Shown here one piece after another: positions 13,118 to 29,913 of a DNA stretch of 32,000 nucleotides (position 1 is the stretch's first letter; every line of letters begins with the position of its first letter). This DNA is from Brasilonema sennae CENA114. GTDB lineage: Bacteria > Cyanobacteriota > Cyanobacteriia > Cyanobacteriales > Nostocaceae. Made by a program: the position numbers and the translations under genes. The notes under the pieces were generated by a model. The model saw only the letters and a program-made list of their open reading frames with translations, was not told where the DNA came from and ran no database searches. The stretch spans positions 4,274,399 to 4,306,398 of the forward strand of contig NZ_CP030118.1 in assembly GCF_006968745.1 (NCBI RefSeq), in the 5' to 3' direction.

Positions 13118-13190
13118 TGGAGCTAAGCGGATTCGAACCGCTGACCCCCTCAATGCCATTGAGGTGCTCTACCAACTGAGCTATAACCCC
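13118..13190 (-). tRNA. tRNA-Ala (anticodon GGC), CCA not encoded
   Basis: The minus strand reads GGGGTTA-TA-GCTC-AGTTGGTA-GAGC-A-CCTCA-ATGGCAT-TGAGG-GGGTC-AGCGG-TTCGAAT-CCGCT-TAGCTCC-A. This folds as a 73-nt cloverleaf by hand. It has the G3:U70 Ala identity pair and the anticodon loop aT-GGC-At. Confidence 0.93.
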
Positions 13191-14671: not shown

Positions 14672-14877
14672 CTATACGTAGTACGCCAGATGCCAACTCC
14701 TGCGGATACGCTGCGCGTTCGCCTCCGGCGTGCGCTTTGCGCTTACAAGTCGGGAAACCCGCCCACGGCACCGCCTCCTCAGTTTGAGTCGGAATTTAAA
14801 TGGAAAAATGAAAGACTCTTTCATTTTGAATTTTGTTCGCGTAGCGTGTCCGCAGGACATATTTTGAATTTTGAATT
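14672..14877. repeat. cluster of GC-rich small dispersed repeats (TCCTGCGGAYACGCTRCGCG family) plus the 46-bp repeat copy
   Basis: tcctgcggatacgctgcgcgttcg lies near 14698 (+) and gttcgcgtagcgtgtccgcagga near 14838 (inverted). The same motif occurs at 13220 and twice within 31527-31555. The ORFs 14672..14860 and 14690..15010 are artefacts of this block. Confidence 0.8.
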
Positions 14878-14945
14878 CTTATTCACCCTACCGTTTTACG
14901 CTCAACACTGCAAAAGTCGTATATCCAAAATCAATAGCAGTCATT

Positions 14946-16046
14946 ATGGCGATTATCTCCTCAAAAAAACAGCCCCAAGAACCCAACAAAGAACCAAAGC
15001 AGCGGCGTGAGGTGGCGAAAGCGCCTCCTAAAGAGAATCTTTTGCAACCCGAAGCAGCTGTTGATGAAGGTAAGCAAGAAGAAAGTATACGCCCACAACG
15101 ATTTGCGGACTATATCGGACAAAAAGATTTAAAGGACGTCCTAGATATTGCCATAAAAGCAGCCAAGTCTCGGGGTGAGGTGCTAGATCATCTACTGTTG
15201 TATGGTCCTCCAGGATTGGGGAAAACCACAATGGCTATGATACTGGCGTCTGAGATGGGAGTAAATTGCAAAATTACGAGTGCGCCAGCTTTAGAACGTC
15301 CCAGAGATATTGTTGGGCTATTGGTGAATCTCAAGCCAGGAGATGTTTTGTTTATTGATGAAATTCATCGTTTGTCGCGGATGAGCGAAGAAATTTTATA
15401 CCCAGCGATGGAGGATTATCGCTTAGATATTACGATTGGTAAGGGTTCTAGCACCAAGACTCGCAGCTTACCACTATCAAAGTTTACCTTGGTTGGGGCA
15501 ACAACTCGTGCCGGGGCGTTGAGTTCACCGTTGCGCGATCGCTTTGGCTTAATTCAAAAACTGAGATTTTATGAAGTTGATGAACTGAGTAAAATTGTCT
15601 TACGCAGCGCTCAATTACTCCAAACGAATATCACTGACGATGGTGCCGCAGAAGTTGCCCGTCGTTCGCGGGGAACACCACGTATTGCTAATAGATTACT
15701 AAAACGAGTCCGTGATTATGCGCAAGTCAAATCATTCAATGAGGTGAATGAACAAGTTGCAGCAGAAGCATTGCAACTATTTCAAGTTGATCCTTGCGGT
15801 TTAGATTGGACAGACCGTCGGATGTTGAGTGTGATTATTGAACAGTTTAATGGTGGTCCGGTGGGATTGGAAACCATCGCTGCAGCAACGGGTGAGGATA
15901 CACAAACTATTGAGGAAGTGTATGAACCATATCTGATGCAGATTGGCTATTTAAGCCGGACGACCCGTGGTAGAGTGGCGACACCCACAGCTTACAAGCA
16001 TTTAGGTTTTAAACCTCCAAATGAACAGTTGTCATTATTGCCGTAA
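14946..16046 (+). CDS. ruvB: Holliday junction branch-migration helicase RuvB
   Basis: Walker [10 protein letters not shown], Walker [11 protein letters not shown] and sensor region [18 protein letters not shown] prefer the ATG at 14946 (MAIISSKK..). The track start (TTG at 14871) lies inside the 46-bp repeat. Confidence 0.93.
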
Positions 16047-16090
16047 ATTTGATCAACACTTCCAGTGATAATGAGTTTTGAATTTGGAAC

Positions 16091-16120
16091 CGCAGATGGA
16101 CGCAGAGAAACGCAGATGAT
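16091..16120. repeat. three tandem decamers (cgcagatgga cgcagagaaa cgcagatgat)
   Basis: Read directly. It lies just upstream of, and overlapping, the preferred start of the TPR gene. Confidence 0.8.
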
Positions 16121-16922
16121 GAGACTAATTATTATTTTTCTAAGTCTGTTGCTGGTGTTTGGGTGGGGTGAGGTTGCCATAGCAGAAACAAAATCCCCCA
16201 ATTTCACTGCAGAACAGTTACAGCAAGGCGATGAGTTAGCGAATAAGGCAATTGCCGCTACTAATAAAGGTGATTTTGGCACGGCGGAACGGTACTGGAC
16301 GCAAATTCTTGAGCAATTTCCCGATAATCCAGCGGTTTGGAGTAATCGAGGAAATTCTAGGGTTAGTCAAAATAAGTTGCAAGAAGCACTCGCAGATTAT
16401 AATAAGGCGGTAGAATTAGCTCCGAATGTAACTGACCCCTACTTGAATCGTGGTACGGCGTTGGAAGGTCTGGGAAAATGGGATGAGGCGATCGCAGATT
16501 ATAATCACGTTCTAGAACTTGACCCCAAAGATGCAATGGCATATAACAATCGAGGAAATGCCTATGCTGGTTTGAGGAAGTGGCAAGAGGCGATCGCCGA
16601 CTACAAAAAATCCAACGAAATTGCCCCGAATTTTGCCTTTGCCCGTGCGAACTATGTTCTTGCCCTTTATGAAACTGGTAAAGTAGACGAAGCAATTCGG
16701 GAAATGCGGAACATTCTCCGTAAATATCCTAACTTTGCAGATGTACGTGCTGCTATTACTGCAGCCTACTGGCAAAAGGGAAAACAAGGTGAAGCGGAGA
16801 GTAACTGGGTGTCAGCAGTTGGACTGGATGCGCGTTACAAGGATATCGACTGGGTGACGAATGTTCGGCGATGGCCTCCTAGTATGGTGACGGCTTTGGA
16901 TAAATTTTTGACACTCAAGTAA
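16116..16922 (+). CDS. TPR repeat protein with an N-terminal signal/anchor
   Basis: MMRLIIIFLSLLLVFGWGEVAIA is followed by TPR units (W.NRGN.., AIADYN..L.L.P). I prefer the ATG at 16116 to the upstream alternative start at 16065, which would begin within the decamer repeat. Confidence 0.8.
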   Translation: MMRLIIIFLSLLLVFGWGEVAIAETKSPNFTAEQLQQGDELANKAIAATNKGDFGTAERYWTQILEQFPDNPAVWSNRGNSRVSQNKLQEALADYNKAVELAPNVTDPYLNRGTALEGLGKWDEAIADYNHVLELDPKDAMAYNNRGNAYAGLRKWQEAIADYKKSNEIAPNFAFARANYVLALYETGKVDEAIREMRNILRKYPNFADVRAAITAAYWQKGKQGEAESNWVSAVGLDARYKDIDWVTNVRRWPPSMVTALDKFLTLK

Positions 16923-17164: not shown

Positions 17165-17932
17165 ATGAATCGAGTCCAAGATAAAGTTGCAATTGTTACA
17201 GGCGCAGCACGAGGTATTGGTGGAGCAACAGCTCTACTTTTAGCAAAAGAAGGAGCCAAGGTTGCTGTCACAGATATTCTTGCGGATGAAGGTAAAACAT
17301 TAGTACAAGAAATTCATAGTCATGGCTCAGAAGCTGATTACTGGCATTTAGACGTTTCCCAGGAAACTCAGGTCAAGCAAGTATTTGCTGAAGTTTACCG
17401 CAAGTGGGGAAAAATCGATATTTTAGTCAATAATGCCGGAATCGCTGGTATCAATAAACCCACTCATGAGATTTCTGAAGAAGAATGGAACACAGTGATG
17501 GCAATTAATACAAATGGGGTTTTTCTTTGTACTAAACACGCGATCGCTTATATGCTAAACACTGGTGGTGGTAGCATTATCAATCTGTCCTCAATTGCCG
17601 GGCTGGTTGGTTCACGTGGTTATCCACCCTATCATGCAGCTAAAGGTGCAGTACGTTTGATGACTAAAGCGAATGCAATACAATATGCAAAAAATAATAT
17701 TCGCTTTAATTCTATTCATCCCGGCTTAATTTGGACAGCGATAGTAGAAGAACCTTTAAAAAAAACAGAAAACCCCACAGAAGTTTTGAAAGACTACGAA
17801 AAGCGAATCCCCGCAGGACGTCTAGGCAAACCAGATGATATTGCTTATGGAATACTTTACCTGGCTTCTGATGAGTCAAAGTATATGACAGGAGCGGAAT
17901 TAGTCATTGATGGTGGCTATACAGCCCAGTAG
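17165..17932 (+). CDS. classical short-chain dehydrogenase/reductase (SDR family)
   Basis: Cofactor motif TGAARGIGG, then NNAG, and the catalytic Ser...YHAAK triad. 255 aa. Confidence 0.9.
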   Translation: MNRVQDKVAIVTGAARGIGGATALLLAKEGAKVAVTDILADEGKTLVQEIHSHGSEADYWHLDVSQETQVKQVFAEVYRKWGKIDILVNNAGIAGINKPTHEISEEEWNTVMAINTNGVFLCTKHAIAYMLNTGGGSIINLSSIAGLVGSRGYPPYHAAKGAVRLMTKANAIQYAKNNIRFNSIHPGLIWTAIVEEPLKKTENPTEVLKDYEKRIPAGRLGKPDDIAYGILYLASDESKYMTGAELVIDGGYTAQ

Positions 17933-17990
17933 TAACAAGTTGGTATGAAAAAGCAGGCGTTGCTGTGCATAATTTCATTCATGAAAGCAA

Positions 17991-19616
17991 TTGGCTACGG
18001 TAGAGTTACCCTTAACGCCAGCACAATCCATTGTCAATAAAATTGCCAAGAATATGAAGTCCGGCACAAGTTTCCAGGATAAAGTTCATTCTGAGTATGA
18101 CTACATTGTTATTGGTGCAGGTTCGGCCGGCTGCGTTGTTGCCAACCGAATGTCACAAAACAGCGACACAACCGTGTTACTCCTTGAAGCAGGCAACCCG
18201 GATACGAAACCGGAGATTCATATTCCGGCAGAAGTCGGCAGTCTACAAGGCTCCGAGGTGGACTGGGGCTATATCTCAGAACCAGAGCCGTACTTGAATC
18301 ATCGCAAAATGTTTTGTCCCCGTGGCAAAGTTTTGGGCGGCAGCAGTTCAATTAATCTCATGATTTATATCCGGGGCAATCCTCACGATTATGACCACTG
18401 GGAATCGCTAGGAAATCCCGGCTGGTCGTACCAGCACGTTTTACCCTATTTTAAGAAATCTGAGAACCAGCAACGCGGTGCCGATGCTTACCACGGGGTT
18501 GATGGTGAGTTGAGCGTCACTGATTTGATTTCCCCTGGTGTAGTATCCCAACGCTTTGTCGATGCCTGTGTGGAACTGGGGTATGACCACAATCCTGATT
18601 TCAACGGGATGCAGCAGTCAGGGGCCGGACTCTATCAGTCAACAATCAAAGATGGTAAACGGCACAGTACCGCCGCTGCCTTCCTGGTGCCGATTCGCCA
18701 GCGTCCTAATTTGACGATAACGACAGGCGCGTTGGTGACTCGCTTGTTGTTTGAGGGAACCAGCGCTGTTGGAGTGGAATATCTGCACGAGGGAATGCTG
18801 CATCAGGTCAGGGTTAACCAGGAAGTCATTTTAAGTGCGGGCGCGTTCGATTCACCCAAGCTGCTGCTGCTTTCCGGCATTGGCGATGCAGAATACCTGC
18901 AAGGGCTGGGAATTTCTGTCGTGGCTGATTTGCCAGGGGTCGGTCAAAACCTGCAAGACCACCTTATCGTTCCGGTAGCCCAACAGACGACTCAAGAAAT
19001 ACACCCTGCCATCACCAGCAATGTGTCTGAAGCCGGACTGTTCTTCCATAGCGAGGGCAACCTGGAGGCTCCACCCGATGTCCAGTTCTTCTTCGGTCCT
19101 GATATATTTGTACCGCCTGGCTATGACCGTCCTGATTGGGGATTCACGGGTGTAGTCTCTTTGACTCATTTCCAAAACATTGGCAGTGTCAGTTTGCGCT
19201 CATCTGACCCCAAAGACCCTCCAGTCATACGGATGAACTATCTGCAAAGTGAAGCTGATGTGCGAAAGCTCGTTGCTGGGATTCGATTAATGCGGCAATT
19301 GTTTCAGTCCCGTGCTTTTGATGAGTTTGGCGGTAAGGAAGTTGCTCCGGGTGCTGGTGTTCAGAACGATGCAGCACTGGAAGCCTACATCCGGGAAACT
19401 TGCAGTACGGGACATCATCAGACTGGCACTTGCAAAATGGGCACTGACCCAATGGCAGTGGTAGACTCCGAACTGCGAGTACATGGGGTTAAGGGATTGC
19501 GGGTTGCGGATGCATCGATCATGCCAACTCTGGTCAGGGGCAACACAAACGCGCCCATCATTATGATTGGCGAAAAAGCAGCTGATTTCATTAAAGCCGC
19601 AGGTGGCATTTCATAG
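17991..19616 (+). CDS. GMC-family FAD oxidoreductase (choline/alcohol dehydrogenase-like, AlkJ/HOTHEAD type)
   Basis: FAD fold DYIVIGAGSAGCVVANRMS, a GMC signature region GKVLGGSSSINLMIY, and a C-terminal His/Asn active-site region (HQTGTCKMG ... ADASIMP). The start is uncertain: TTG at 17991 or ATG at 18054. Confidence 0.88.
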   Translation: MATVELPLTPAQSIVNKIAKNMKSGTSFQDKVHSEYDYIVIGAGSAGCVVANRMSQNSDTTVLLLEAGNPDTKPEIHIPAEVGSLQGSEVDWGYISEPEPYLNHRKMFCPRGKVLGGSSSINLMIYIRGNPHDYDHWESLGNPGWSYQHVLPYFKKSENQQRGADAYHGVDGELSVTDLISPGVVSQRFVDACVELGYDHNPDFNGMQQSGAGLYQSTIKDGKRHSTAAAFLVPIRQRPNLTITTGALVTRLLFEGTSAVGVEYLHEGMLHQVRVNQEVILSAGAFDSPKLLLLSGIGDAEYLQGLGISVVADLPGVGQNLQDHLIVPVAQQTTQEIHPAITSNVSEAGLFFHSEGNLEAPPDVQFFFGPDIFVPPGYDRPDWGFTGVVSLTHFQNIGSVSLRSSDPKDPPVIRMNYLQSEADVRKLVAGIRLMRQLFQSRAFDEFGGKEVAPGAGVQNDAALEAYIRETCSTGHHQTGTCKMGTDPMAVVDSELRVHGVKGLRVADASIMPTLVRGNTNAPIIMIGEKAADFIKAAGGIS

Positions 19617-19702
19617 CAAGCACTGCATAAACTTGAGCAAGCATCACTGGAATAAACAATTTCAGCTTTACCGAAATGTACCTTTGTATCTTAAGAGAAA
19701 TT

Positions 19703-19780
19703 GATATCGATTGGGTGGCAAATTTTCGGCGATCGCCTTCTAGTATGGTAACAGCGATAAGTTTTTGACATTGAAGTAGG
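19703..19780 (+). pseudogene. relic copy of the 3' end of the TPR gene (homologous to 16842-16923)
   Basis: Hand alignment gives roughly 80% identity with one 4-nt gap. The relic gatatcgattgggtggcaaattttcggcgatcgccttctagtatggtaacagcgataagtttttgacattgaagtagg aligns with gatatcgactgggtgacgaatgttcggcgatggcctcctagtatggtgacggctttggataaatttttgacactcaagtaag. Confidence 0.8.
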
Positions 19781-19787
19781 GGCATTT

Positions 19788-21176
19788 ATGATCAAATTAC
19801 CTGATGGACCAAAAACTCCGCCTTGGTTGCAGCTATTACAGTGGATTGCTGACCCTTTAGGTTATATGGAAACGTCTTTCCAACGCTACGGAGATTTCTT
19901 CACCGCCCGTTGGGGAAATCTTTACCCCAAAGCGGTGTTCATCAGTAATCCGCAAGCAATTCAAGAAATTTTCACCGCTGATCCTAAACTGTTTGACTCT
20001 GGTCGAGGGAATGGGCTGGGAAAAGTCGTCGTAGGAGAACACTCTATACTTTTGTTGGATGGATCTAGCCACCAGCGTCGGCGACGCCTTTTAACCCCCC
20101 CTTTTCATGGTGAACGGATGCAAGCATATGGCGATTTGATTTGCACCCTCGCCAAACAAGTCAGCAGTCAGTGGACAATAGGCAAGCCCTTTTCTGTCCG
20201 GAAATCCATGCAAGAAATTAGTTTGCGCGTCATCTTGCAAGCTGTTTTTGGTCTCAATGAAGGACCGCGTTATGAGGAACTCAGACAACTGCTAGCAGAA
20301 ATGATGGATATGACAGTCTCTCCTTTGCGGGCGTCTATGCTGTTCTTTAAGTTCTTGCAAAAGGATTTAGGGGCTTGGAGTCCGTGGGGAAGCTTTCGGC
20401 GTCGCCAGCAGCAAATTGATCGGCTACTCTACGCCGAAATTCAAGACAGGCGTAGACAAAACGACCTTGAACGCAGTGACATCCTCTCCTTAATGATTTC
20501 AGCTCGCGATGAGCAGGATCAGCAGATGACAGATGAAGAGTTGCACGATGAACTCATAACTCTGCTGTTAGCTGGTCACGAAACAACAGCCAGTTCTTTA
20601 TGCTGGGCTTTATACTGGATTCACTATCAGCCCCAGGTACGGGACAAGCTACTGCAAGAACTCAATAGCCTTGGTGCAGATCCAGACCCCACAGACATTG
20701 TTCGTCTGCCATATCTGACTGCTGTGTGTCAAGAAACACTGCGTATTTATCCGCCATTATTCTTGACTTGGCCCCGGATTTTGAAAGCTCCTTTAAAGCT
20801 GGGAGACTATCACTTTGATACTGATACCGTACTGCTTCCTTGTATTTATCTGACTCACCAACGAGAGGATCTTTATCCAGAACCAAAACAGTTTAAACCG
20901 GAACGATTTTTAAAGCGGCAATACTCTCCATTTGAGTTTTTTGTTTTTGGTGGAAGCAATCGTCGCTGTGTTGGTGCGGCATTGGCTATGTTTGAAATGA
21001 AACTGGTAGTGGCGACAATCGTATCAAATTATCAATTAGCGCTGACTGATAGCCAACCAGTGAAACCACAGCGCCGAGGTTTCTTTCTCGCCCCTGCGGC
21101 TGGGTTCAAGATGATGATAACGGGCAGGCGCGTGCGTCAAGAGCAACCTAGTCAGCCTGTTGGCAGTTCAATTTAG
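19788..21176 (+). CDS. cytochrome P450, CYP110-like (P450-A)
   Basis: Heme loop FGGSNRRCVGAALA, I-helix AGHETT, ExxR (ETLR), and an N-terminus LPDGPKTPPWLQLLQWIADPLGYME that I recall as typical of cyanobacterial CYP110 proteins. Confidence 0.92.
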   Translation: MIKLPDGPKTPPWLQLLQWIADPLGYMETSFQRYGDFFTARWGNLYPKAVFISNPQAIQEIFTADPKLFDSGRGNGLGKVVVGEHSILLLDGSSHQRRRRLLTPPFHGERMQAYGDLICTLAKQVSSQWTIGKPFSVRKSMQEISLRVILQAVFGLNEGPRYEELRQLLAEMMDMTVSPLRASMLFFKFLQKDLGAWSPWGSFRRRQQQIDRLLYAEIQDRRRQNDLERSDILSLMISARDEQDQQMTDEELHDELITLLLAGHETTASSLCWALYWIHYQPQVRDKLLQELNSLGADPDPTDIVRLPYLTAVCQETLRIYPPLFLTWPRILKAPLKLGDYHFDTDTVLLPCIYLTHQREDLYPEPKQFKPERFLKRQYSPFEFFVFGGSNRRCVGAALAMFEMKLVVATIVSNYQLALTDSQPVKPQRRGFFLAPAAGFKMMITGRRVRQEQPSQPVGSSI

Positions 21177-21255
21177 CACTCAACTAGAGCTAGTGTGGAG
21201 TATGCGCTGATTTTGAGGACGCATCCCCACTACCATCCGCACACCCTCTGCTGGT
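21177..21255 (-). pseudogene. relic of the 3' end of a minus-strand P450 gene
   Basis: cactcaactagagctagtgtggagtatgcgctgattttgaggacgcatccccactaccatccgcacaccctctgctggt aligns by eye (about 75%) with the last ~80 nt of P450-C (25999..) and P450-B (24506..). It includes the position of their stop codon. Confidence 0.7.
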
Positions 21256-21356
21256 TTGAGAAAATGGCAAGAGGCGATCGCCGTGGGTGGCAAATATTCG
21301 CCGAGCGTCTCCTAGTATGATAACAGCTTTGGATAAGTTTTTAACACTTAAGTAGG
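21250..21356 (+). pseudogene. second relic of the TPR gene with an internal deletion (16566-16599 fused to 16851-16923)
   Basis: gctggtttgagaaaatggcaagaggcgatcgccg matches 16566-16599. The adjoining tgggtggcaaatattcgccgagcgtctcctagtatgataacagctttggataagtttttaacacttaagtagg matches 16851-16923. It shares derived bases with the 19703 copy. Confidence 0.8.
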
Positions 21357-21377
21357 TTGGGCAGAATATAAGAATGT

Positions 21378-21413
21378 GGGGCTGGATATATACGAATATC
21401 CTCATCCAGTCCC
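21378..21413. terminator. imperfect hairpin between the convergent operons (possible bidirectional terminator)
   Basis: ggggctggat ... atccagtccc, with one mismatch. It lies between the TPR relic and the 3' end of the FAAL-ACP-TE gene. Confidence 0.3.
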
Positions 21414-21435
21414 TAAAACTTTTATTGTCGGATTA

Positions 21436-24411
21436 CTAGGAAGCAGGAACTTCATTTGCAAGCACATGAGCCTGTGCCCTTTCGAGACTGACTCTTAGCC
21501 GTTCGGCTAGAATCTGGACGTGGGGTTCAACCATCATCGTTACATGGTCGCCCGGAACGAAATGGATGTCCACTGCTTCGATAGAAAGCTGGCTCCAGCC
21601 GAAAGTCGAATCTCTAAGAACCTCATCAGAAAGCCAAGTAGCAGCATCCCAAGGATGAACCTCGTTGGCTCGGAAGAAAGCAATTCGAGTCGGATAGACC
21701 TCCTGTGGCATATAATTAGCCATAGCTTGAAGGTTAGCCTTGAGAACTTTCACTAAGCCACGCACTTGTTTTGTCCCTGCCTCAGAAGGCAGCACATTAA
21801 CTATTTTCAACTGCTCCACTACATAATTCACTTGCTCGTCTGGAGCAAGGAGAGCGAGGTCATTGTACGATACCTCCAGTTTTTTTCCTAGCAGGCGTCC
21901 AAATAAACTGGCAAGCTCAACCATGCATTGAATATCATCCCAATCAACACGTATCGGCTGATTGGGAAGTGGTGCTGGGATGTCTAAAACTGCAAGTAAA
22001 GCTACCTGATGCCCAGATGAAAGCAACTGCTGAGATATCTCGAACGCCACCTTACCACCGAAGGAATGACCTCCGAGAAAGTATGGTCCCTGCGGCTGAA
22101 TGCTTTGTAATGCTTCGATGTAGTGAGCAGCTATTTCCTCAATTTTTGTGTAAGGCTGTGCTTCATCATCAAGTCCAAGTGCTTGCAGACCGTAAAAAGG
22201 TTGGTCTTGACCGAGGTGAAGTGCTAAAGTATGCAAATAGAATGTAGTTCCTACACTCCCAGGCACGCAGAAGAAAGGAGGTTTTGAACCGCCCGACTGA
22301 ATCGCCACTAAAGCAGAATAAGACAAAGCTTCTGGCTTATCATCTTGAGGTAATTCTGCCTGAGAGCTTTCGGAAGGCTCTGAGGAAAGCACTTTTTTTA
22401 CCAGATAATCAACAAGCGCTTCCACAGTTGGATAGTCAAATATCACCGTTGAACCAAGGGAGCATCCTAGGCTCTGTTCGAGAAGATTTGTCAGTTCAAT
22501 CACCATGAGTGAGTCGAGTCCCATACTGGTTAAAGGCTGCTGCCAGTCTAACTGGGATGGATCTACTGTCAGAATCTTCGAGATCAGATTCTGAAGATGA
22601 GATTTCAGCAACCCCTGACGCTTTTCTGGTGAAGTGTCCAACAGCGCTTTTCGCTCTGGGAAGACTTGTCTTTCGATAACATTAAATTCTTTGTGGATGC
22701 TGCTAGCCACCACATCCAAGCTACCATCCAAAAACCCCACCCGACAAGCATGGCGCTGAATCTTATTACTGCCAGTCTTTGGAATACTCCCTGTATTTAG
22801 CAGCAGGACAGCATAAACTTGTAAATCATGCTGCTGCGACACCGCTTGACGGATGGCTGCAACTACCTGATCCACATTCAGCTTTTCTAGATAAGTCTGT
22901 TTAACTTCACAAGCAATAACTAATCGCTCCTCACTCTCCACTTCCACTGAAAATGCTGCACTACAGCTAGGTTGGAGTGCGGGATGGCTTTTTTCTACGG
23001 TAAACTCAATATCTTGAGGATAATGGTTACGACCCCGAATAATGATTAGGTCTTTAAGACGACCCGTAACAAACAACTCTTTATCAAGCAAAAATCCCAA
23101 ATCGCCAGTACGCAAAAATGGTCCTTCATTGGTATCTGCTAAGTAACCGTGAAAGGTTTCCTTGGTTGCGTCAGGTCGATTCCAGTAACCTTGAGCAACA
23201 CTCGGACTTGACACCCAAATCTCTCCCACTTCTTCGGGTGGACATTGGATTAAGGATTCAGGGTTAACGATCAGGATTTTCTGGTCCAACCAAGTGCGAC
23301 CACAACCCACGATTTTTTGGGTACTTTCGCTTTCACCAACCGCTACGACAACTCGGTTTTGCTCAAATGCTGCCTTCTCAATGTTTTGGATTACAGCTGG
23401 CTGTTTTTTTAAACCCAAAGAAATACCGACAACGCTCTCAGCCATACCGTAGCCGGGATTAAATGCCTCTCGGCGAAAGCCACACTGAGTAAAGGTGGCG
23501 ACAAACCGCTCAATAGTTTCTGCACGAACTGGTTCAGCACCGCTAACAGCCAATTCCCAACTGCTCAAGTCAAGCATTGCCCGTTGTTCGGCAGTTGTCT
23601 GGAAACAAGCCATGTCATAAGCAAAATTGGGGGCAAGGCTTTGAGTCGCTTTGTAACGGGAAATCGCCATTAGCCAGCGCAAAGGCTTTTGTAGGAAGTC
23701 CAGTGGCGACATGATCGTAACTGGGAAATCACTGTAAACAGGCTGTATAACTCCAACGATTAACCCTGTATTGTGACCGAATGGCAACCAAGTCACCGTC
23801 CGGCTATTGGAGGTCAACTCTCCTGACTTATGGCTCATAGCCAAATTGTGCATCAAATTGCTATGAGCGATCATCACCCCCTTCGGTGTCCCCGTAGATC
23901 CAGAAGTGTATTGGAGAAAAGCCAGGGTATCGCTGCTGAGTGTCGGTTTTTGCCAGTCTGCTCCCAGGTCACTGGCAATATTATCAGTAGCTAACAAATG
24001 CATCCTTCTTGCCAATTCTGGATTTTCGTCAAAGCGGCTTTCTAAATATACTAATAGAGAAGAAGTTGTGAAAGCTACTTTTACTTCCGCATCTGTGGCG
24101 ATCGCTTCGAGTCTGGAAAGTGACTGATTGGGGCGGGGTGGATACGCGGGAATAGCGATCGCCCCAGCATACAAACACCCAAAGAAACCGGCAATGAATT
24201 CCAGACCAGGTGGGTACAGTAACAACACTCGTTCGCCTGTAGCATTTATGGACTGAAGATAGGCGGCGATCGCCCGTGCTTGTAGTTCTAATTCCTGATA
24301 AGTCAGACTGCTGCTTATTGTTTCACCATCTTGGAGAAAAGTATAAGTTTTTTGGTCAGGCTGATTTTGCGAGCGATAGTGCAGCAAGTCTACTAAATTA
24401 GAAAATTTCAT
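21436..24411 (-). CDS. tridomain fatty acyl-AMP ligase (FAAL) - acyl carrier protein - type I thioesterase
   Basis: Adenylation core YTSGSTGTPKG (aa 168-178) in a FAAL-like N-terminal context (QKTYTFLQDGE...LTYQEL). Phosphopantetheine site MGLDSL with Ser634 (codon 22510-22512). Thioesterase GHSFGG with Ser783 and a C-terminal GDH motif (aa 954-956). There is no KS, AT, C or R domain. Confidence 0.9.
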   Translation of the reverse strand: MKFSNLVDLLHYRSQNQPDQKTYTFLQDGETISSSLTYQELELQARAIAAYLQSINATGERVLLLYPPGLEFIAGFFGCLYAGAIAIPAYPPRPNQSLSRLEAIATDAEVKVAFTTSSLLVYLESRFDENPELARRMHLLATDNIASDLGADWQKPTLSSDTLAFLQYTSGSTGTPKGVMIAHSNLMHNLAMSHKSGELTSNSRTVTWLPFGHNTGLIVGVIQPVYSDFPVTIMSPLDFLQKPLRWLMAISRYKATQSLAPNFAYDMACFQTTAEQRAMLDLSSWELAVSGAEPVRAETIERFVATFTQCGFRREAFNPGYGMAESVVGISLGLKKQPAVIQNIEKAAFEQNRVVVAVGESESTQKIVGCGRTWLDQKILIVNPESLIQCPPEEVGEIWVSSPSVAQGYWNRPDATKETFHGYLADTNEGPFLRTGDLGFLLDKELFVTGRLKDLIIIRGRNHYPQDIEFTVEKSHPALQPSCSAAFSVEVESEERLVIACEVKQTYLEKLNVDQVVAAIRQAVSQQHDLQVYAVLLLNTGSIPKTGSNKIQRHACRVGFLDGSLDVVASSIHKEFNVIERQVFPERKALLDTSPEKRQGLLKSHLQNLISKILTVDPSQLDWQQPLTSMGLDSLMVIELTNLLEQSLGCSLGSTVIFDYPTVEALVDYLVKKVLSSEPSESSQAELPQDDKPEALSYSALVAIQSGGSKPPFFCVPGSVGTTFYLHTLALHLGQDQPFYGLQALGLDDEAQPYTKIEEIAAHYIEALQSIQPQGPYFLGGHSFGGKVAFEISQQLLSSGHQVALLAVLDIPAPLPNQPIRVDWDDIQCMVELASLFGRLLGKKLEVSYNDLALLAPDEQVNYVVEQLKIVNVLPSEAGTKQVRGLVKVLKANLQAMANYMPQEVYPTRIAFFRANEVHPWDAATWLSDEVLRDSTFGWSQLSIEAVDIHFVPGDHVTMMVEPHVQILAERLRVSLERAQAHVLANEVPAS

Positions 24412-24505
24412 CGCTATTTGCCGTCTCCTTAAAATATCAAATTTTCACTGATTCTATGGATGCGCTTGTCTCTGCTTGAGCCATCCCAGCCCAAACTATC
24501 AATCT

Positions 24506-25900
24506 TCAAACTGAACTAGAAGTAGTCTCCAAAATACGCTCATTTTGAGAGCGCCTCCCCGTTACCACCATCCGCACACCCCCTTCTGGTCCTGACAGAA
24601 GTCCCTTACGTACTGGCTGCACTGGTTTGCTATCAGCGAGTTCCATCTGAACGCGCGACAAAACTGTCGCCAAAACCAGTTTCATCTCAAATAAGGCAAA
24701 TGCCATACCAATACAGCGACGGTTACCGCCACCGAAGGGTAAATACTCAGAAGGAGCAAATTGATGTTCCAGAAAACGCTCAGGTTTAAACTGCTTTGGA
24801 TTGGGATATAAATCTTCGCGATGATGGGTTAGATAAATAGATGGAATCAGCAGAGTACCAGGCTCTAACTGATAGCCCATGATGTCTAGCGGTGATTTCA
24901 CCAGTCGATTTAATGCCGTCGAAACTACTGGGTAAAGACGTAGTGTTTCAGAACAAACTGCATTTAAATAAGGTGATCGCAAAATAGCATTCGTATCAGG
25001 ATTTTCACTTAAGCGATCCAACTCTTGCAGCAGTTTTTTATGCACCTCTGGCAGACGGTGAATCCAATATAATGCCCAAGCTAAGGAAGTTGCTGTTGTC
25101 TCGTGACCTGCGAACAAGAGCGTCATCAACTCATCGCGCAACTCTACATCTGTCATCGGCTGACCTTGTTCATCACGAGCAGATATCATCAAAGACAGGA
25201 TATCAGTCCGAGATGTATCCAGTTGCTCTTTGCGTTCCCGAATTTCAGCGTAGATGAGTTCATCCATTTGCTGCTGTTGCCGCATCAAGCGCCCCCACGG
25301 ACTCCAAGGACCTAAATCTCGTTGCAGTGACGGCAAAAAAAGCAGGATTGCTCTCAAAAGAGGTCTGCTCGGATTTAACCTCTCTATGAGGAGTTCCTTT
25401 AATTTTTCATAACGGGGGTTATCCTGGAGACCAAAGACTGCTTTTAAAATCACTTGGAAGGAAATTGCTTGCATGGACGGTAGGACAGAAAAGGGTTCGC
25501 CGACCTGCCACTGACTCGTCACTTGCTTAGTAATATCGGTGATTAGCTCACCATAAGCTAACATCCTTTCTCCATGAAAGGGGGGTGTCAACAATTTTCG
25601 TTGTCGCCGGTGAGGCTTGCCTTCTAGCGCCAGCATTGATTGCTGCCCCAATAAAGGTGATTTAATACCCGCTGGTTCACCCGAGTCCAATAGTTTTGGG
25701 TCAGTGGTAAAAATCTGTTGAATCGCTTGGGGGTTACTTATAAATACTTGTGGCTTAAAAACTGGACCAATCCTGAGAGTGAAGATATCACCATAGCGTT
25801 GAGTACAAGCTTCCATGTATTCTAAGGGGTTAGTCAGCCATTGAAGCGTCTGTATCAAAGGGTGAGTTTGAGGACCGTCAGGCAGTTGAAGAGTAGGCAT
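24506..25900 (-). CDS. cytochrome P450, CYP110-like (P450-B), tandem paralogue
   Basis: Heme loop FGGGNRRCIGMAFA, AGHETT and ETLR. It lies 94 nt upstream of the FAAL-ACP-TE gene on the same strand. Confidence 0.92.
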   Translation of the reverse strand: MPTLQLPDGPQTHPLIQTLQWLTNPLEYMEACTQRYGDIFTLRIGPVFKPQVFISNPQAIQQIFTTDPKLLDSGEPAGIKSPLLGQQSMLALEGKPHRRQRKLLTPPFHGERMLAYGELITDITKQVTSQWQVGEPFSVLPSMQAISFQVILKAVFGLQDNPRYEKLKELLIERLNPSRPLLRAILLFLPSLQRDLGPWSPWGRLMRQQQQMDELIYAEIRERKEQLDTSRTDILSLMISARDEQGQPMTDVELRDELMTLLFAGHETTATSLAWALYWIHRLPEVHKKLLQELDRLSENPDTNAILRSPYLNAVCSETLRLYPVVSTALNRLVKSPLDIMGYQLEPGTLLIPSIYLTHHREDLYPNPKQFKPERFLEHQFAPSEYLPFGGGNRRCIGMAFALFEMKLVLATVLSRVQMELADSKPVQPVRKGLLSGPEGGVRMVVTGRRSQNERILETTSSSV

Positions 25901-25998
25901 TTTTGGTACTTCCTGATACTAAATAATCATTTAATCCATAAATAGCTCGAAGTTTAACGGATTCCACGAAATTCCCGCAACCAATGCGGTGGGATACT

Positions 25999-27396
25999 TC
26001 ACACTGAACTAGAGCTAGTCTCCAAAACACGCTCATTTTGAGACCGTCTCCCCGTCACCACCATCCGTACACCCCCTTTTGGTCCTAACAGAAAACCCTT
26101 ACGTTCTGGCTGCACTAGCTTGCTATCAGCGAGTTCCATCTGAACGCGGGACAAAACTGTTGCCAAAACGAGTTTCATCTCAAATAAGGCAAATGCCATA
26201 CCAATACAGCGACGGTTACCGCCACCAAACGGCAAATACTCAGAAGGAGCAAATTGACGTTCCAGAAAACGCTCTGGTTTAAACTGCTTGGAATTGGGAT
26301 ATAAATCTTCGCGATGATGAGTTAGATAAATAGAGGGAATCAGCAGAGTACCAGGCTCAAACTCATAGCCCCCGATTTCTAGGGGTGATTTCACCAATCG
26401 CTTTAATCCCAACATCGCCACTGGGTAAAGGCGCAGTGTTTCATAACAGACAGCATTTAAATAGGGCAAACGAAAAATAGCGTTCGGATCTGGGTTTTCA
26501 CCCAAACTATCCAGTTCTTGCAGTAATTTCTCACGCACTTCGCTCACATGGTGCATCCAATATAATGCCCAAGATAACGCACTTGCAGTGGTTTCATGAC
26601 CCGCTACCAAGAGCGTCATCAACTCATCGCGTAACTCTACATCCGTCATCGGCTGCCCTTGCTCATCGCGAGCCGATATCATCAAAGACAGAATATCACT
26701 CCGAGATGAATTGTCTGGTTGCTGTTTGCGTTCCCGAATCTCGGCGTAGATGAGTTCATCTATTTGCTGTCTTTGGCGCATAAAGTTTTTCCAAGGACTC
26801 CACGGACCTAAAGCCCGTTGGAGTAATGGGAAAAGAAGCATGACAGCTCTCAACAAAGGTCTCTTTGGATTCAGGATTGCAATCAGGAGTTCTTTGAGCT
26901 TTTCGTAACGTGCCCCTTCCTCTAGACCAAAGACAGCTTTCAAAATAACTTGGAAGGAGATTGCTTGCATAGAAGGTAGGACAGAAAAGGGTTCGCCAAT
27001 CTGCCATTGACTCGTCACTTGCTTGGTAATATCGGGGATTAGCTTACCATAAGCTAGCATCCTTTCCCCATGAAAAGGAGGTGTCAACAGCTTTCGTTGT
27101 CGCTGATGAGGCTTACCTTCTAGCGCCAGCATTGATTGTCGCCCCAATAAAGATGATTGAATACCTGCTGGTTCACCAGAGTCCAATAATTTTGGATCAG
27201 TGGTAAAAATTTGTTGAATCGCTTGGGGGTTACTTATAAATACTTGTGGCTTAAAAACTGGACCAATCCTGAGAGTGAAGAGATCACCATAGCGTTGAGC
27301 ACAAGCTTCCATGTATTCTAAGGGGTTAGTCAGCCATTGAAGCGTCTGTACCAAAGGGTGAGTTTGAGGACCGTCAGGCAGTTTCTGTTCGGGCAT
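25999..27396 (-). CDS. cytochrome P450, CYP110-like (P450-C), tandem paralogue
   Basis: The same motifs as P450-B and roughly 85% amino-acid identity to it by eye. The gap to P450-B is 98 nt. About 45 nt of the leader is also duplicated. Confidence 0.92.
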   Translation of the reverse strand: MPEQKLPDGPQTHPLVQTLQWLTNPLEYMEACAQRYGDLFTLRIGPVFKPQVFISNPQAIQQIFTTDPKLLDSGEPAGIQSSLLGRQSMLALEGKPHQRQRKLLTPPFHGERMLAYGKLIPDITKQVTSQWQIGEPFSVLPSMQAISFQVILKAVFGLEEGARYEKLKELLIAILNPKRPLLRAVMLLFPLLQRALGPWSPWKNFMRQRQQIDELIYAEIRERKQQPDNSSRSDILSLMISARDEQGQPMTDVELRDELMTLLVAGHETTASALSWALYWMHHVSEVREKLLQELDSLGENPDPNAIFRLPYLNAVCYETLRLYPVAMLGLKRLVKSPLEIGGYEFEPGTLLIPSIYLTHHREDLYPNSKQFKPERFLERQFAPSEYLPFGGGNRRCIGMAFALFEMKLVLATVLSRVQMELADSKLVQPERKGFLLGPKGGVRMVVTGRRSQNERVLETSSSSV

Positions 27397-27641: not shown

Positions 27642-27670
27642 AAAAAAAAAGGCAGGTTTTAAACCTGCCT
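27642..27670 (-). terminator. intrinsic terminator of the glucan phosphorylase gene
   Basis: The minus strand reads aggcaggttt-aaacctgcc followed by TTTTTTTTT, about 30 nt after the stop at 27700. Confidence 0.8.
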
Positions 27671-27699: not shown

Positions 27700-29913
27700 T
27701 TACACTAGAACCTTTGCTAAAATCGGTCCAACACGAGTGGCAATTTCTGGGACGTATACCTGCGAAACGTAATCGGCAATCATCCTATCCGTGTTGAACA
27801 ATGGTGCATTCGTCTTGATTGATGCCTTCATCATTTGCACCCAGCCGTGAGGAGTGCCGTTAGCATCTTGGTCGTAGTACAAGGGGACTATTTGCTCTTC
27901 CAAAAGCTTATAAAGGGATTGTGCATCTATGCTATCTTGTAAATCTTGATCACTGGTGTGAGCATCCTCACCAATTGCCCACCCATTTATCCCTTGACCA
28001 TTTGCATCTGCTTTGTATCCTTCGCACCACCAACCATCGAGGACGCTGCAATTAATTCCACCATTAAAGCAGACTTTTTGCCCACTCGTACCAGAAGCTT
28101 CTAAGGGGCGACGGGGGTTGTTTAACCAAACATCAACACCTTGGACAAGTTTTTGACCAACGTAAATGTCATAGTCTTCAATAAAAGCAACTCGATGCTG
28201 AATTGCGGAATGCTGACACCATTCCATTAAGCGTTGGATAATCCGTTTGCCTTCTTCATCAGCTGGGTGAGCTTTACCTGCAAAAATAATTTGTACAGGA
28301 CGTTGTGCATTGCCAAAAATTCTCATTGCCCGTTCGGCGTCACGCAAAAGCAGATGACCGCGCTTATATGGGCTAAAGCGTCTGGCAAATCCGATAGTCA
28401 GCACTTTGGGATCAAGCAGTGTTTCTGCCGCTTGAATTATTTGGTATTGTTCACCGCGTTGTTCCCGTGCTTTTTTCACTTTATATCGAGTGTAGGCAAT
28501 CAGTCTTTCTTTTAAGACTAAGTGTCGCCACCAGAGTTCCTCATTTGGAATATTATCAACTTTCTCCCACGTCTTCGGGTCAATGACACGAGTTTTCCAG
28601 TCTTCGCCTAAGTATTGAGCGTACAGCTCTGCCATTAAGGGAGCAGTCCAAGTGGGCGCATGGACGCCATTAGTAATGTAACCGATGGGGACTTTGTCTT
28701 CAGAACGTTGTGGATACAAAATTGTCCACATTTTACGAGAAACATGACCGTGCAATTCGCTGACGCCATTGGCTGCACGACACATCCGTAGTGCCAAAAC
28801 TGTCATGCCAAAGGGTTCCCAAGGGTCGCCCAGTCGGCGTGCGCCTAATGCCAAGAATTGCTGGCGGGATAGGCGTAGCTGAGTCCAGTAATGGGCAAAG
28901 AAGGAGTCTATCAAGTCAGGTGAGAAGACATCATGACCTGCGGGAACGGGTGTGTGGGTGGTGAACACACAACGATTTCGCACATCGGCTTCGATGTCGT
29001 AGAAGGATTTGCCAGTGCGCTCAATTTCTTGGCGTGCAACTTCTAAAGTGGAGAATGCAGCATGACCTTCGTTGAGGTGATGGACAGAAGGTTGAATCCC
29101 CAAGGCTGTTAACGCTTTGACACCACCAATTCCCAAGACGACTTCTTGGGCAATGCGAGTTTCCTGGTTACCACCGTACAGGTGTCCAGTTAGCCAGCGG
29201 TCTATGGGATCATTATCCTGGCGATCGCTATCCAATAAGTAAAGACTCACTCGCCCCACTTGCACTCGCCAAATTTGCACTCTCACCATTCGTTGGCGAA
29301 CTTGCAATTGTATCGTGATTGGTTCCCCGTGCCAATTTCTCATTAACTCCATAGGCATTTGGGAGAAGGGGTTGTCAACGTAGTAATCTTCTTGCCAACC
29401 GCCGCGATTCAACCGTTGTCGGAAGTAACCTTGGCGATACAACAAGCCGACACCAACCATTGGGACTCCCAAATCTGATGCTGATTTTAGGTGGTCACCT
29501 GCAAGAATGCCTAAACCACCAGAGTAGACAGGCAAAGATTCATGTATGCCAAATTCAGCACAAAAGTAAGCAATGGGATGTTCTTGGGTAATTTGTGGTG
29601 CAACCCGACTCACCCAAGTGTCTTTTGTGCTCATGTATTCGTCAAACTCGCGCACGAGTGACCCTATTTGCTTGAGATAATACGGGTCTTCAGCAAGCTG
29701 GGTAAGACGTTCGTATGTCGCTGAGTGTAACATTTCTACAGGATTATGCCCGCAGCGTTCCCATACTTGAGGATCGATGGTTTGGAACAGCGCGATGCGA
29801 TCGCTCGTCCAACTCCACCAATAGTTATAAGCCAAAGAAGCCAAGCGCTTGAGTGGAAAAGGTAATTTCTCACCCAGTACTTGCACTGCGGTATTTGCAC
29901 TGCTGATATTCAT
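27700..29913 (-). CDS. glgP: alpha-glucan (glycogen/maltodextrin) phosphorylase, short alpha-glucan-phosphorylase family
   Basis: 737 aa. It has the N-terminal PVYSGGLGILAGDHLKSASDLGVP motif and a PLP-lysine region EASGTSGQKVCFNGG. Confidence 0.88.
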   Translation of the reverse strand: MNISSANTAVQVLGEKLPFPLKRLASLAYNYWWSWTSDRIALFQTIDPQVWERCGHNPVEMLHSATYERLTQLAEDPYYLKQIGSLVREFDEYMSTKDTWVSRVAPQITQEHPIAYFCAEFGIHESLPVYSGGLGILAGDHLKSASDLGVPMVGVGLLYRQGYFRQRLNRGGWQEDYYVDNPFSQMPMELMRNWHGEPITIQLQVRQRMVRVQIWRVQVGRVSLYLLDSDRQDNDPIDRWLTGHLYGGNQETRIAQEVVLGIGGVKALTALGIQPSVHHLNEGHAAFSTLEVARQEIERTGKSFYDIEADVRNRCVFTTHTPVPAGHDVFSPDLIDSFFAHYWTQLRLSRQQFLALGARRLGDPWEPFGMTVLALRMCRAANGVSELHGHVSRKMWTILYPQRSEDKVPIGYITNGVHAPTWTAPLMAELYAQYLGEDWKTRVIDPKTWEKVDNIPNEELWWRHLVLKERLIAYTRYKVKKAREQRGEQYQIIQAAETLLDPKVLTIGFARRFSPYKRGHLLLRDAERAMRIFGNAQRPVQIIFAGKAHPADEEGKRIIQRLMEWCQHSAIQHRVAFIEDYDIYVGQKLVQGVDVWLNNPRRPLEASGTSGQKVCFNGGINCSVLDGWWCEGYKADANGQGINGWAIGEDAHTSDQDLQDSIDAQSLYKLLEEQIVPLYYDQDANGTPHGWVQMMKASIKTNAPLFNTDRMIADYVSQVYVPEIATRVGPILAKVLV

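Follow-up and report, generated by a model that had tools for sequence, protein, structure and literature searches.

A candidate fatty-acid-tailoring island with a fused FAAL-ACP-TE protein and CYP110 cytochromes P450 in Brasilonema sennae

Fatty acyl-AMP ligases (FAALs) load free fatty acids on acyl carrier proteins (ACPs) and not on CoA (PMC10088813, PMC11837247). The locus treated here, a six-gene island in a 32,000-nucleotide stretch of the genome of Brasilonema sennae CENA114 (contig NZ_CP030118.1, positions 4,274,399 to 4,306,398; called the window in the following), has its closest described counterparts in the polyyne clusters cay and pgn, which are responsible for caryoynencin and protegencin. 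There a FAAL loads a free fatty acid on a dedicated ACP, no extension takes place, and a thioesterase (TE) releases the product, and this thiotemplated load, modify and release scheme has been established experimentally (PMC9828172). Three paralogous tailoring oxidoreductases are found in both cases, and the cytochrome P450 CayG can be accessory in the polyyne pathway (PMC9828172). The Brasilonema island likewise contains FAAL, dedicated ACP, and TE in one locus without ketosynthase (KS) or condensation domains. It differs in having P450s of the CYP110 family in place of the membrane desaturases, in the fusion of FAAL, ACP, and TE to one protein of 991 amino acids, in the lack of a rubredoxin or ferritin partner, and in the addition of a glucose-methanol-choline (GMC) flavoprotein oxidoreductase and a short-chain dehydrogenase/reductase (SDR); action on the acyl-ACP is predicted here by analogy. 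Since domain scans of the window yielded neither a desaturase nor a rubredoxin, the island falls outside the polyyne family, and the likeness is one of logic and architecture only.

Two further groups of FAAL pathways are related more distantly. In the JamA/JamB/JamC system and in puwainaphycin biosynthesis FAAL and ACP present a fatty acyl chain to tailoring enzymes; for the FAAL-primed puwainaphycins, hydroxy and keto groups of the acyl chain are ascribed to the P450 PuwJ (PMC10088813), and the FAAL-ACP protein PuwI is 56% identical to the FAAL-ACP part of the island protein. In these systems the chains pass to modules of polyketide synthases (PKS) and nonribosomal peptide synthetases (NRPS), whereas in the island the TE follows directly after the ACP and no assembly line lies downstream. 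The olefin synthase Ols also starts with a FAAL-ACP didomain (PMC11837247). Assignment of the island to the Ols type was rejected, as KS, acyltransferase (AT), ketoreductase (KR), ACP, sulfotransferase (ST), and TE would be expected in series after FAAL-ACP and no KS, AT, KR, or ST occurs in the window.

What would be new here is an extension-free thiotemplated tailoring of fatty acids in which CYP110 P450s work with a carrier enzyme of three fused domains, the underlying logic being already known. The island most likely makes oxygenated fatty acids. As a tentative reading, to which we give somewhat less than an even chance, it is an orphan, genus-restricted fatty-acid-tailoring island without chain extension, in which a fatty acid would be loaded on the carrier, hydroxylated there by CYP110 proteins, and set free by the TE.

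Gene content of the island

The map was based on a listing of open reading frames (ORFs) and on Pfam and NCBIfam scans of the 32-kb window. It reproduced the six ORFs, their coordinates and domains, and the two convergent operons which had been described in an earlier reading of the same DNA (the original prediction), with a revision of one start codon. The plus strand carries the genes for a classical SDR of 255 amino acids (17165..17932), the GMC protein of 520 amino acids with GMC_oxred_N and GMC_oxred_C domains in Pfam (18054..19616), and a CYP110 protein of 462 amino acids, P450-A (19788..21176; p450 E = 9.8e-78). On the minus strand lie the genes for two CYP110E proteins, P450-C with 465 amino acids (25999..27396) and P450-B with 464 (24506..25900), followed by FAAL-ACP-TE (21436..24411). 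The gaps in the minus-strand operon are 98 nt (P450-B/P450-C) and 94 nt (FAAL-ACP-TE/P450-B), and the two operons converge on a gap of 259 nt. The mechanical ORF of the GMC gene begins with a TTG at 17991; database annotation and all orthologues start at the ATG at 18054, which is almost certainly the true start. A motif search found the catalytic motifs intact in all six proteins. The absence of any chain-extending enzyme, claimed in the original prediction, could be confirmed: no KS, AT, condensation, terpene synthase, or ST domain was detected by Pfam or NCBIfam in the window, and assignments to PKS/NRPS or terpene pathways were rejected for lack of their defining domains.

The FAAL-ACP-TE protein and its relatives

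The 991 amino acid FAAL-ACP-TE protein is identical to a protein of Brasilonema octagenarum UFV-E1 (CP030121.1, about 4.27-4.30 Mb, reverse orientation). Pfam places an AMP-binding domain at residues 15-410 (E = 1.3e-64), a DIP2-like C-terminal subdomain at 454-567, a PP-binding domain at 606-670, and a Thioesterase domain at 712-972. The first two make up the FAAL domain (residues 1-570; 22702..24411, minus strand), which carries the motif TSGSTGTPK at residue 169. NCBIfam FAAL models score 363-434 bits with it compared to at most 302 bits for models of fatty acyl-CoA ligases (FACLs); none of these values reaches the curated equivalog cut-offs. All of the best solved structures are FAALs; the top match, 7r7e-g, deposited as 'Polyketide synthase' and presumably the loading domain of Ols, the olefin synthase from Synechococcus PCC 7002, reaches 617 bits and is collinear (2-569 / 6-569). 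The FAAL-specific insertion which blocks the use of CoA can be judged only indirectly, from an alignment to the FAAL structure 7r7g that needs no gap over its length (2-569 versus 6-569) and from the fragmented matches to FACL structures. The cognate acyl acceptor, the PP-binding domain, is fused directly after this domain. By these sequence criteria the AMP-binding domain qualifies as a putative fatty acyl-AMP ligase.

The ACP (residues 606-670; 22402..22596, minus strand; PP-binding E = 7.3e-17) has its phosphopantetheine serine, Ser633, in a GLDSL motif at residue 631, of which LDSL is invariant across the aligned family members. The type-I TE domain (residues 712-972; 21496..22278, minus strand; Thioesterase E = 2.9e-32) contains GHSFG at 781, with Ser783, and GDH at 954, with His956, and this serine and histidine are invariant in the aligned family as well. 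Its nearest relatives are the terminal TEs of PKS/NRPS proteins. When the ACP-TE part was compared by HMMER with a library clustered at 50%, the closest group of orthologues (clade 1) appeared as a single representative and the other matches were megasynthase TEs; a profile scan of genome contigs with the ACP-TE alignment likewise gave mostly PKS/NRPS TEs, with four true orthologues among the matches listed. The fused FAAL-ACP-TE arrangement is not mentioned in searchable FAAL reviews and papers and is an undescribed cyanobacterial tridomain family.

Full-length orthologues forming clade 1, with 59-87% identity, occur in Okeania, Hydrocoleum, Dapis, Trichodesmium, Crocosphaera (including ATCC 51142), and Nostoc sp. 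C117. Clade 2 (44-47% identity) is found in Calothrix, Anabaena, Nostoc piscinale, and Leptolyngbya, and clade 3 (38.5%) on a plasmid of Oscillatoria acuminata. Oxygenases as well as sugar, sulfo, and methyl transferases recur beside members of this family, though not universally. Four unrelated types of oxygenase adjoin FAAL-ACP-TE relatives in independent lineages, namely CYP110, a Rieske protein together with another P450, a di-iron FA_hydroxylase, and a PhyH dioxygenase. In Nostoc C117 the Rieske protein and a P450 outside CYP110 are encoded directly upstream of FAAL-ACP-TE. Trichodesmium erythraeum IMS101 (locus L014, 3933-11215) has genes for a nucleotidyltransferase (NTP-transferase), a UDPGT glycosyltransferase (GT), an ST, and FAAL-ACP-TE in series on one strand, and this apparent operon suggests a sulfated glycolipid or acyl-sugar product; Trichodesmium MAG_R02 (L016) lacks the genes upstream. 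The IMS101 NTP-transferase is 64% identical to that of the metagenomic locus L012, and its GT is 66% identical to the one of the Brasilonema-type contig L098, both of which are described below. In clade 2 a Lipase_3 gene immediately follows FAAL-ACP-TE in Calothrix NIES-4071 (L177, 10001-15392) and Nostoc piscinale CENA21 (L178, 8001-12276), a conserved pair which hints at lipid remodelling, and the di-iron FA_hydroxylase is also encoded near FAAL-ACP-TE in the Calothrix strain. The neighbours on the Oscillatoria plasmid are an ST, a GT2 glycosyltransferase, and a PhyH-containing fusion protein. The recurrent link of the family to glycosyl, sulfo, and methyl transferases was not part of the original prediction. 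A small ORF upstream of FAAL-ACP-TE genes, considered as a further conserved element, was discarded, as these ORFs are mutually unrelated and one of them is a P450 remnant.

CYP110 proteins and cassette exchange at the slot

For the P450s the nomenclature rule was applied, by which at least 40% amino acid identity to named members places a protein in a family and more than 55% in a subfamily; named reference sequences were taken from the supplement of PMC7014017. In pairwise comparisons P450-B (70%) and P450-C (72%) came closest to CYP110E14, and P450-A is 58-59% identical to CYP110A11 and CYP110E16. To ten other CYP110s all three show 44-60% identity, and to CYP120A10 and CYP197X2 only 23-29%. 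As these values satisfy the rule, all three belong to CYP110, and the CYP110-like label they had been given from the bare sequence, now backed by identities of 44-72%, was correct. All three proteins contain AGHETT and ETLR. The heme loop of P450-B and P450-C reads FGGGNRRCIG; that of P450-A (20950-20979) reads FGGSNRRCVG, with serine in place of a glycine of the FxxGxRxCxG consensus and with the heme cysteine kept. The nearest solved structure is only CYP120A1 (1e-39), followed by CYP3A, CYP4B1, CYP51, and P450-BM3. Members of the same family also adjoin FAAL or TE genes in biosynthetic gene clusters of other cyanobacteria. The one characterised member of subfamily E, CYP110E1, is a promiscuous small-molecule oxidase (PMC7014017).

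Identity is 85% between P450-B and P450-C and 58-60% between these two and P450-A, which indicates one recent tandem duplicate and one older paralogue and not three clearly distinct enzymes. The earlier expectation of three P450s with different regiospecificity is thereby weakened. The P450 at position B is only 86-87% identical at the amino acid level among three Brasilonema-type genomes (window 24506-25900; L093:13855-15249; L098:13955-15352), the differences being concentrated in residues about 150-350. By general P450 topology this part corresponds to the F/G and I-helix substrate-recognition region. The P450 at position C is 94-99% conserved among these genomes, and such a hypervariable position beside a conserved one suggests diversifying selection or gene conversion.

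The island occupies a variable slot between housekeeping genes, ruvB and a tetratricopeptide repeat (TPR) gene forming the conserved left border (14871..16922, plus strand; Pfam, NCBIfam) and an alpha-glucan phosphorylase gene the right one (27700..29913, minus strand; TIGR02094, 906 bits), with priA beyond. The original prediction had named synteny as a check, and the same six genes do occur in the same order, from ruvB-TPR to the phosphorylase, in B. octagenarum HA4186. Together with the recurrence of a core of CYP110E and FAAL-ACP proteins in the relatives described below, this argues that the arrangement is more than chance. Nucleotide identity between the window and HA4186 has a baseline of 98.4-99.2% (ruvB, TPR, P450-C, phosphorylase). 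The block 19602..24584, containing P450-A, FAAL-ACP-TE, and adjoining spacers, shows only 4 mismatches (99.92% identity), compared to differences of 1-13% in the flanking genes; identity is 96.0% for SDR and likewise for GMC (17296-19616), and only 87.2% for P450-B. UFV-E1 has a GMC paralogue of 76% identity elsewhere in the genome (P0228), so that gene conversion is possible. In the third Brasilonema-type contig, L098 (JAESFI010000169.1), the same slot still contains SDR, GMC, and two CYP110E genes; the segment 19623-24495 is replaced there by genes for a UDPGT-family GT and an FkbM-type methyltransferase (MT). Since these breakpoints coincide with the near-identical block, P450-A and FAAL-ACP-TE make up a discrete recombination cassette of 4.9 kb, and its near identity points to a recent exchange.

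A different release domain is found at the same slot in Kalymmatonema gypsitolerans NIES-4073 (L010, 8893-13270), where a thioester reductase replaces the TE in a FAAL-ACP protein with a 93% identical FAAL domain. This slot has ruvB on the same side as HA4186 and L098 (the TPR gene could be confirmed in the latter two), shares with both the border formed by the phosphorylase gene, and also contains a split FkbM methyltransferase gene and a GT gene. A 60 amino acid ORF upstream of the FAAL is left over from the N-terminus of a CYP110E (73% identity), the truncation lying beside a BrnT/BrnA toxin-antitoxin insertion. The closest TE-bearing relative outside the genus is the metagenomic locus L012 (FAAL 85%, ACP-TE 90% identity), in which one CYP110E gene lies 34 nt upstream of FAAL-ACP-TE and an MT remnant downstream, followed by a GHMP-kinase/NTP-transferase gene and a PMT-type GT gene. 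From L012 and Kalymmatonema it follows that a CYP110E gene directly upstream of FAAL-ACP-TE or FAAL-ACP-reductase is the ancestral core in this lineage.

Possible routes and products

In the route proposed here, the FAAL would adenylate a free medium- or long-chain fatty acid and load it on the phosphopantetheine arm which the ACP fused to it carries at Ser633, a step for which strong homology and the domain fusion speak. The chain held on the ACP would then be hydroxylated by CYP110 P450s, with electrons probably coming from the general ferredoxin and ferredoxin-NADP reductase; P450-C and its duplicate P450-B would act from within the FAAL-ACP-TE operon and P450-A from within the same mobile cassette. 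The fused TE, with Ser783 and His956, would release the oxygenated acid. The SDR may oxidise secondary hydroxyls to ketones and the GMC protein may oxidise a primary hydroxyl, this being the weakest step. As cyanobacteria are reported to lack beta-oxidation (PMC10088813), such a pathway would be anabolic or tailoring and not catabolic. The occurrence of alternative cassettes at the same slot, GT with O-methyltransferase or FAAL-ACP-reductase, indicates that the family probably makes decorated (hydroxy, oxo, glycosyl, sulfo) lipids derived from fatty acids. A wider proposal, speculative and on the unlikely side, is that FAAL-ACP-TE serves cyanobacteria, among them the diazotrophs Trichodesmium and Crocosphaera, as a self-contained platform for loading, holding, and releasing the chain in a hidden class of decorated lipids, with swappable tailoring cassettes (CYP110, Rieske, di-iron, PhyH; GT, ST, MT; Lipase_3) and swappable release domains (TE or reductase), and that the duplicated hypervariable CYP110E diversifies the Brasilonema products between strains.

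Several observations weigh against hydroxylation on the carrier followed by simple release. In agreement with the original prediction, domain scans found no phosphopantetheinyl transferase gene and no ferredoxin or other redox-partner gene in the window. Literature searches on tridomain FAAL-ACP-TE proteins, on lipid biosynthetic gene clusters of Brasilonema, and on links between FAALs and glycolipids yielded no characterised counterpart. Contig L098 retains SDR, GMC, and two CYP110E genes without FAAL-ACP-TE, from which it follows that the oxidation genes are not obligately carrier-dependent. CYP110A1 from Anabaena/Nostoc PCC 7120, of the family common to the three island P450s (B and C belonging to subfamily E instead), binds free long-chain fatty acids, which in itself favours the proposed route, and does not bind methyl laurate, fatty alcohols, or alkanes (PMC1079853). 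For this member at least, the lack of methyl laurate binding speaks against a substrate tethered as thioester, and CYP110s may need a free carboxylate. Nothing lipid-related lies near the orthologues of Crocosphaera ATCC 51142, a Crocosphaera metagenome-assembled genome, Dapis, Trichodesmium MAG_R02, and locus L013, and the first four also have no oxygenase in their vicinity. In these stand-alone proteins a purely hydrolytic TE would be futile, and the TE may therefore not be a hydrolase. Because of the binding behaviour of CYP110A1 and of these stand-alone orthologues the reverse order of steps was kept as a strong rival, although it is judged unlikely. The CYP110s would then hydroxylate free acids, the FAAL would activate the hydroxy acid, and the TE would spend the energy of the thioester on an ester bond, giving a lactone, an estolide-type oligomer, or an acyl-sugar or lipid ester in place of a free acid. 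The derivation of the TE clade from terminal PKS/NRPS TEs, many of which are cyclising, agrees with this order, as do the repeated links of the family to sugar-activating, glycosyl-, and sulfotransferase genes and of clade 2 to Lipase_3. The Brasilonema island, however, contains no gene which would supply an acceptor, the polyynes provide a natural precedent for loading, modification, and hydrolysis in that order (PMC9828172), and sequence cannot reveal the chemistry of a TE. Carrier-tethered oxygenation of a fatty acid, the central idea of the original prediction, is therefore upheld in part, by the oxygenases recurring beside FAAL-ACP-TE and by the polyyne precedent, and is called into question by the gene content of L098 and the lack of methyl laurate binding by CYP110A1.

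The SDR has TGxxxGxG at residue 12, NAG at 90, and YxxxK at 156, as expected for a classical SDR (Pfam adh_short_C2, E = 6.7e-73). It passes the cut-off of the NCBIfam subfamily 'glucose 1-dehydrogenase' (256.8 versus 215), a name which is not evidence for the substrate, and its nearest solved structures are R-specific (secondary-)alcohol dehydrogenases from Lactobacillus and hydroxysteroid dehydrogenases; its nearest homologues outside Brasilonema are 62-70% identical. The GMC protein, with GxGxxG at residue 21, is closest in structure to choline dehydrogenase, a chloramphenicol primary-alcohol oxidoreductase, alcohol oxidases, and fatty-acid photodecarboxylase, and not to sugar oxidases. Assignment as the choline dehydrogenase BetA was rejected (PRK02106, 585.7 with a cut-off of 605; TIGR01810, 520.9 with a cut-off of 732), which leaves it a member of the GMC superfamily only. 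A link of the two proteins to the fatty-acid cassette is plausible and is the weakest part of the proposal, because both families are widespread and usually not linked to FAAL or P450 genes. The same direction is taken by the comparison of loci: none of 91 other FAAL/TE loci contains a GMC gene, and among 41 GMC loci FAAL is present only at those of Brasilonema. The usual neighbours of GMC encode Dps, DsbA, nitroreductases, universal stress proteins (USP), alternative oxidase, and non-orthologous SDRs, that is redox and stress functions without FAAL or P450, and the part in the pathway which had been ascribed to GMC and SDR from the sequence alone has thus found no support. SDRs beside other GMC orthologues were considered as orthologues of the island SDR and discarded (29-40% identity). 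Two exceptions exist. In Dulcicalothrix PCC 7102 (L096) the GMC gene lies near a 47% identical CYP110, a FAAL fragment, a GT, and an MT, and the redox-rich locus L123 (3286-18863) contains GMC (71%), CYP110 (61%), DJ-1/PfpI, seven SDR, SnoaL-like, Pyr_redox_2, prolyl oligopeptidase, and Zn-ADH genes.

It is accordingly possible, if somewhat doubtful, that the neighbourhood is a mosaic in which SDR and GMC are a pre-existing general redox pair for alcohols or stress and do not act on the product of the cassette. The spread of GMC orthologues with 71-88% identity over cyanobacterial orders (Nostocales, Microcoleus, Leptolyngbya, Chroococcidiopsis), the paralogue in UFV-E1, and the neighbours just described are in line with this, as is the 4% divergence of SDR-GMC between two strains in which the cassette is nearly identical, with the cassette breakpoint exactly at the GMC stop codon. 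Yet the Kalymmatonema slot lacks SDR-GMC, which makes the pair a variable part of the island and not a conserved backbone; it is kept beside CYP110E genes in three Brasilonema-type genomes, GMC occurs near CYP110 in the two other lineages, and its structural neighbours act on primary alcohols or choline. In the route originally proposed, terminal (omega) hydroxylation on the carrier and oxidation by GMC and SDR would lead to alpha,omega-dicarboxylic acids. The model for this was AlkB/AlkJ/AlkH/AlkK of Pseudomonas putida GPo1 or CYP52 with fatty-alcohol oxidase, pathways which, like the island, bring together a hydroxylase, an alcohol oxidoreductase of the GMC family, and an adenylating enzyme. 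CYP110A1 has been hypothesised to be a fatty-acid omega-hydroxylase (PMC1079853), and the GMC protein is closest to choline or alcohol dehydrogenases and oxidases. No aldehyde dehydrogenase (Aldedh family) comparable to AlkH was found in the window by domain scans, however, and in place of a CoA ligase like AlkK the island has a FAAL fused to ACP-TE for adenylation, so that membership in an Alk-type pathway was rejected. The SDR resembles secondary-alcohol dehydrogenases, no CYP110 lends regiochemical support, P450-B and P450-C are near-duplicates, and the GMC/SDR linkage is weak; oxidation to diacids is therefore very improbable. Slightly better placed, but still quite improbable, is a glycolipid as the end product, with genes elsewhere in UFV-E1 providing the enzymes for glycosylation and O-methylation of the hydroxy fatty acid and the island being a partial pathway. 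The UDPGT-type GT and FkbM MT in place of the cassette in L098 would fit, as would homologous GTs (62-66%) near FAAL-ACP-TE in T. erythraeum and near GMC and CYP110 in Dulcicalothrix, and MT homologues or remnants beside FAAL-ACP-reductase or FAAL-ACP-TE in L010, L012, and L009. A precedent are the nostochlorosides (ngl, Nostoc punctiforme), FAAL-primed 6-O-methylgulose glycolipids (PMC10849952), whose O-methylated hexose matches the GT and FkbM-MT cassettes of the sister islands. The ngl cluster, though, has PKS modules, the halogenase CylC, and CylK, whereas the Brasilonema island has no PKS or halogenase and domain scans revealed no GT or MT in the whole window, and GT with MT and P450-A with FAAL-ACP-TE look like alternatives for one site and not like partners.

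Tailoring on the fused carrier, the reading preferred here, concerns a cluster which is confined to one genus and purely predicted, but it bears on wider questions. CYP110 is the dominant P450 family of cyanobacteria and an enigmatic one, and three copies coupled to a fatty-acid loader yield a testable hypothesis on the substrate, acyl-ACP versus free acid. As FAAL-ACP-TE occurs in Trichodesmium and Crocosphaera, major marine diazotrophs, an assigned product would mean a further lipid class in organisms of ecological importance. How small lipid clusters evolve by exchange of modules can be seen from the cassette swaps at one slot, and a compact carrier protein with P450s for regio-selective oxygenation of fatty acids would be of interest for biocatalysis.

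Some minor features of the window remain to be mentioned. The best promoter candidate was discarded as it overlaps the start codon of P450-A, and in a promoter and terminator scan of 16.8-27.8 kb the number of sites was not above that in shuffled sequence. This includes a terminator-like hairpin after the phosphorylase gene (27650..27670, minus strand; 9-bp stem followed by a T-run), which would mark the upstream limit of the minus-strand operon. Rfam and tRNA scans gave only a tRNA-Ala(GGC) outside the island (13118-13190, minus strand), which is separated by about 4 kb from the variable island to its right and lies beside PIN/Uma2-type genes. At 8982-11507 a NB-ARC/TPR (STAND-type) protein is encoded with about eight tandem TPR_12 repeats of 126 nt (10389-11378), which are mutually 83% identical. 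In priA a frame change (-1 to -3) is found at 31475-31590 within a low-complexity insert of short repeats, the L098 homologue being in frame; an error of assembly, a genuine frameshift, or hypervariability of the insert could account for it.

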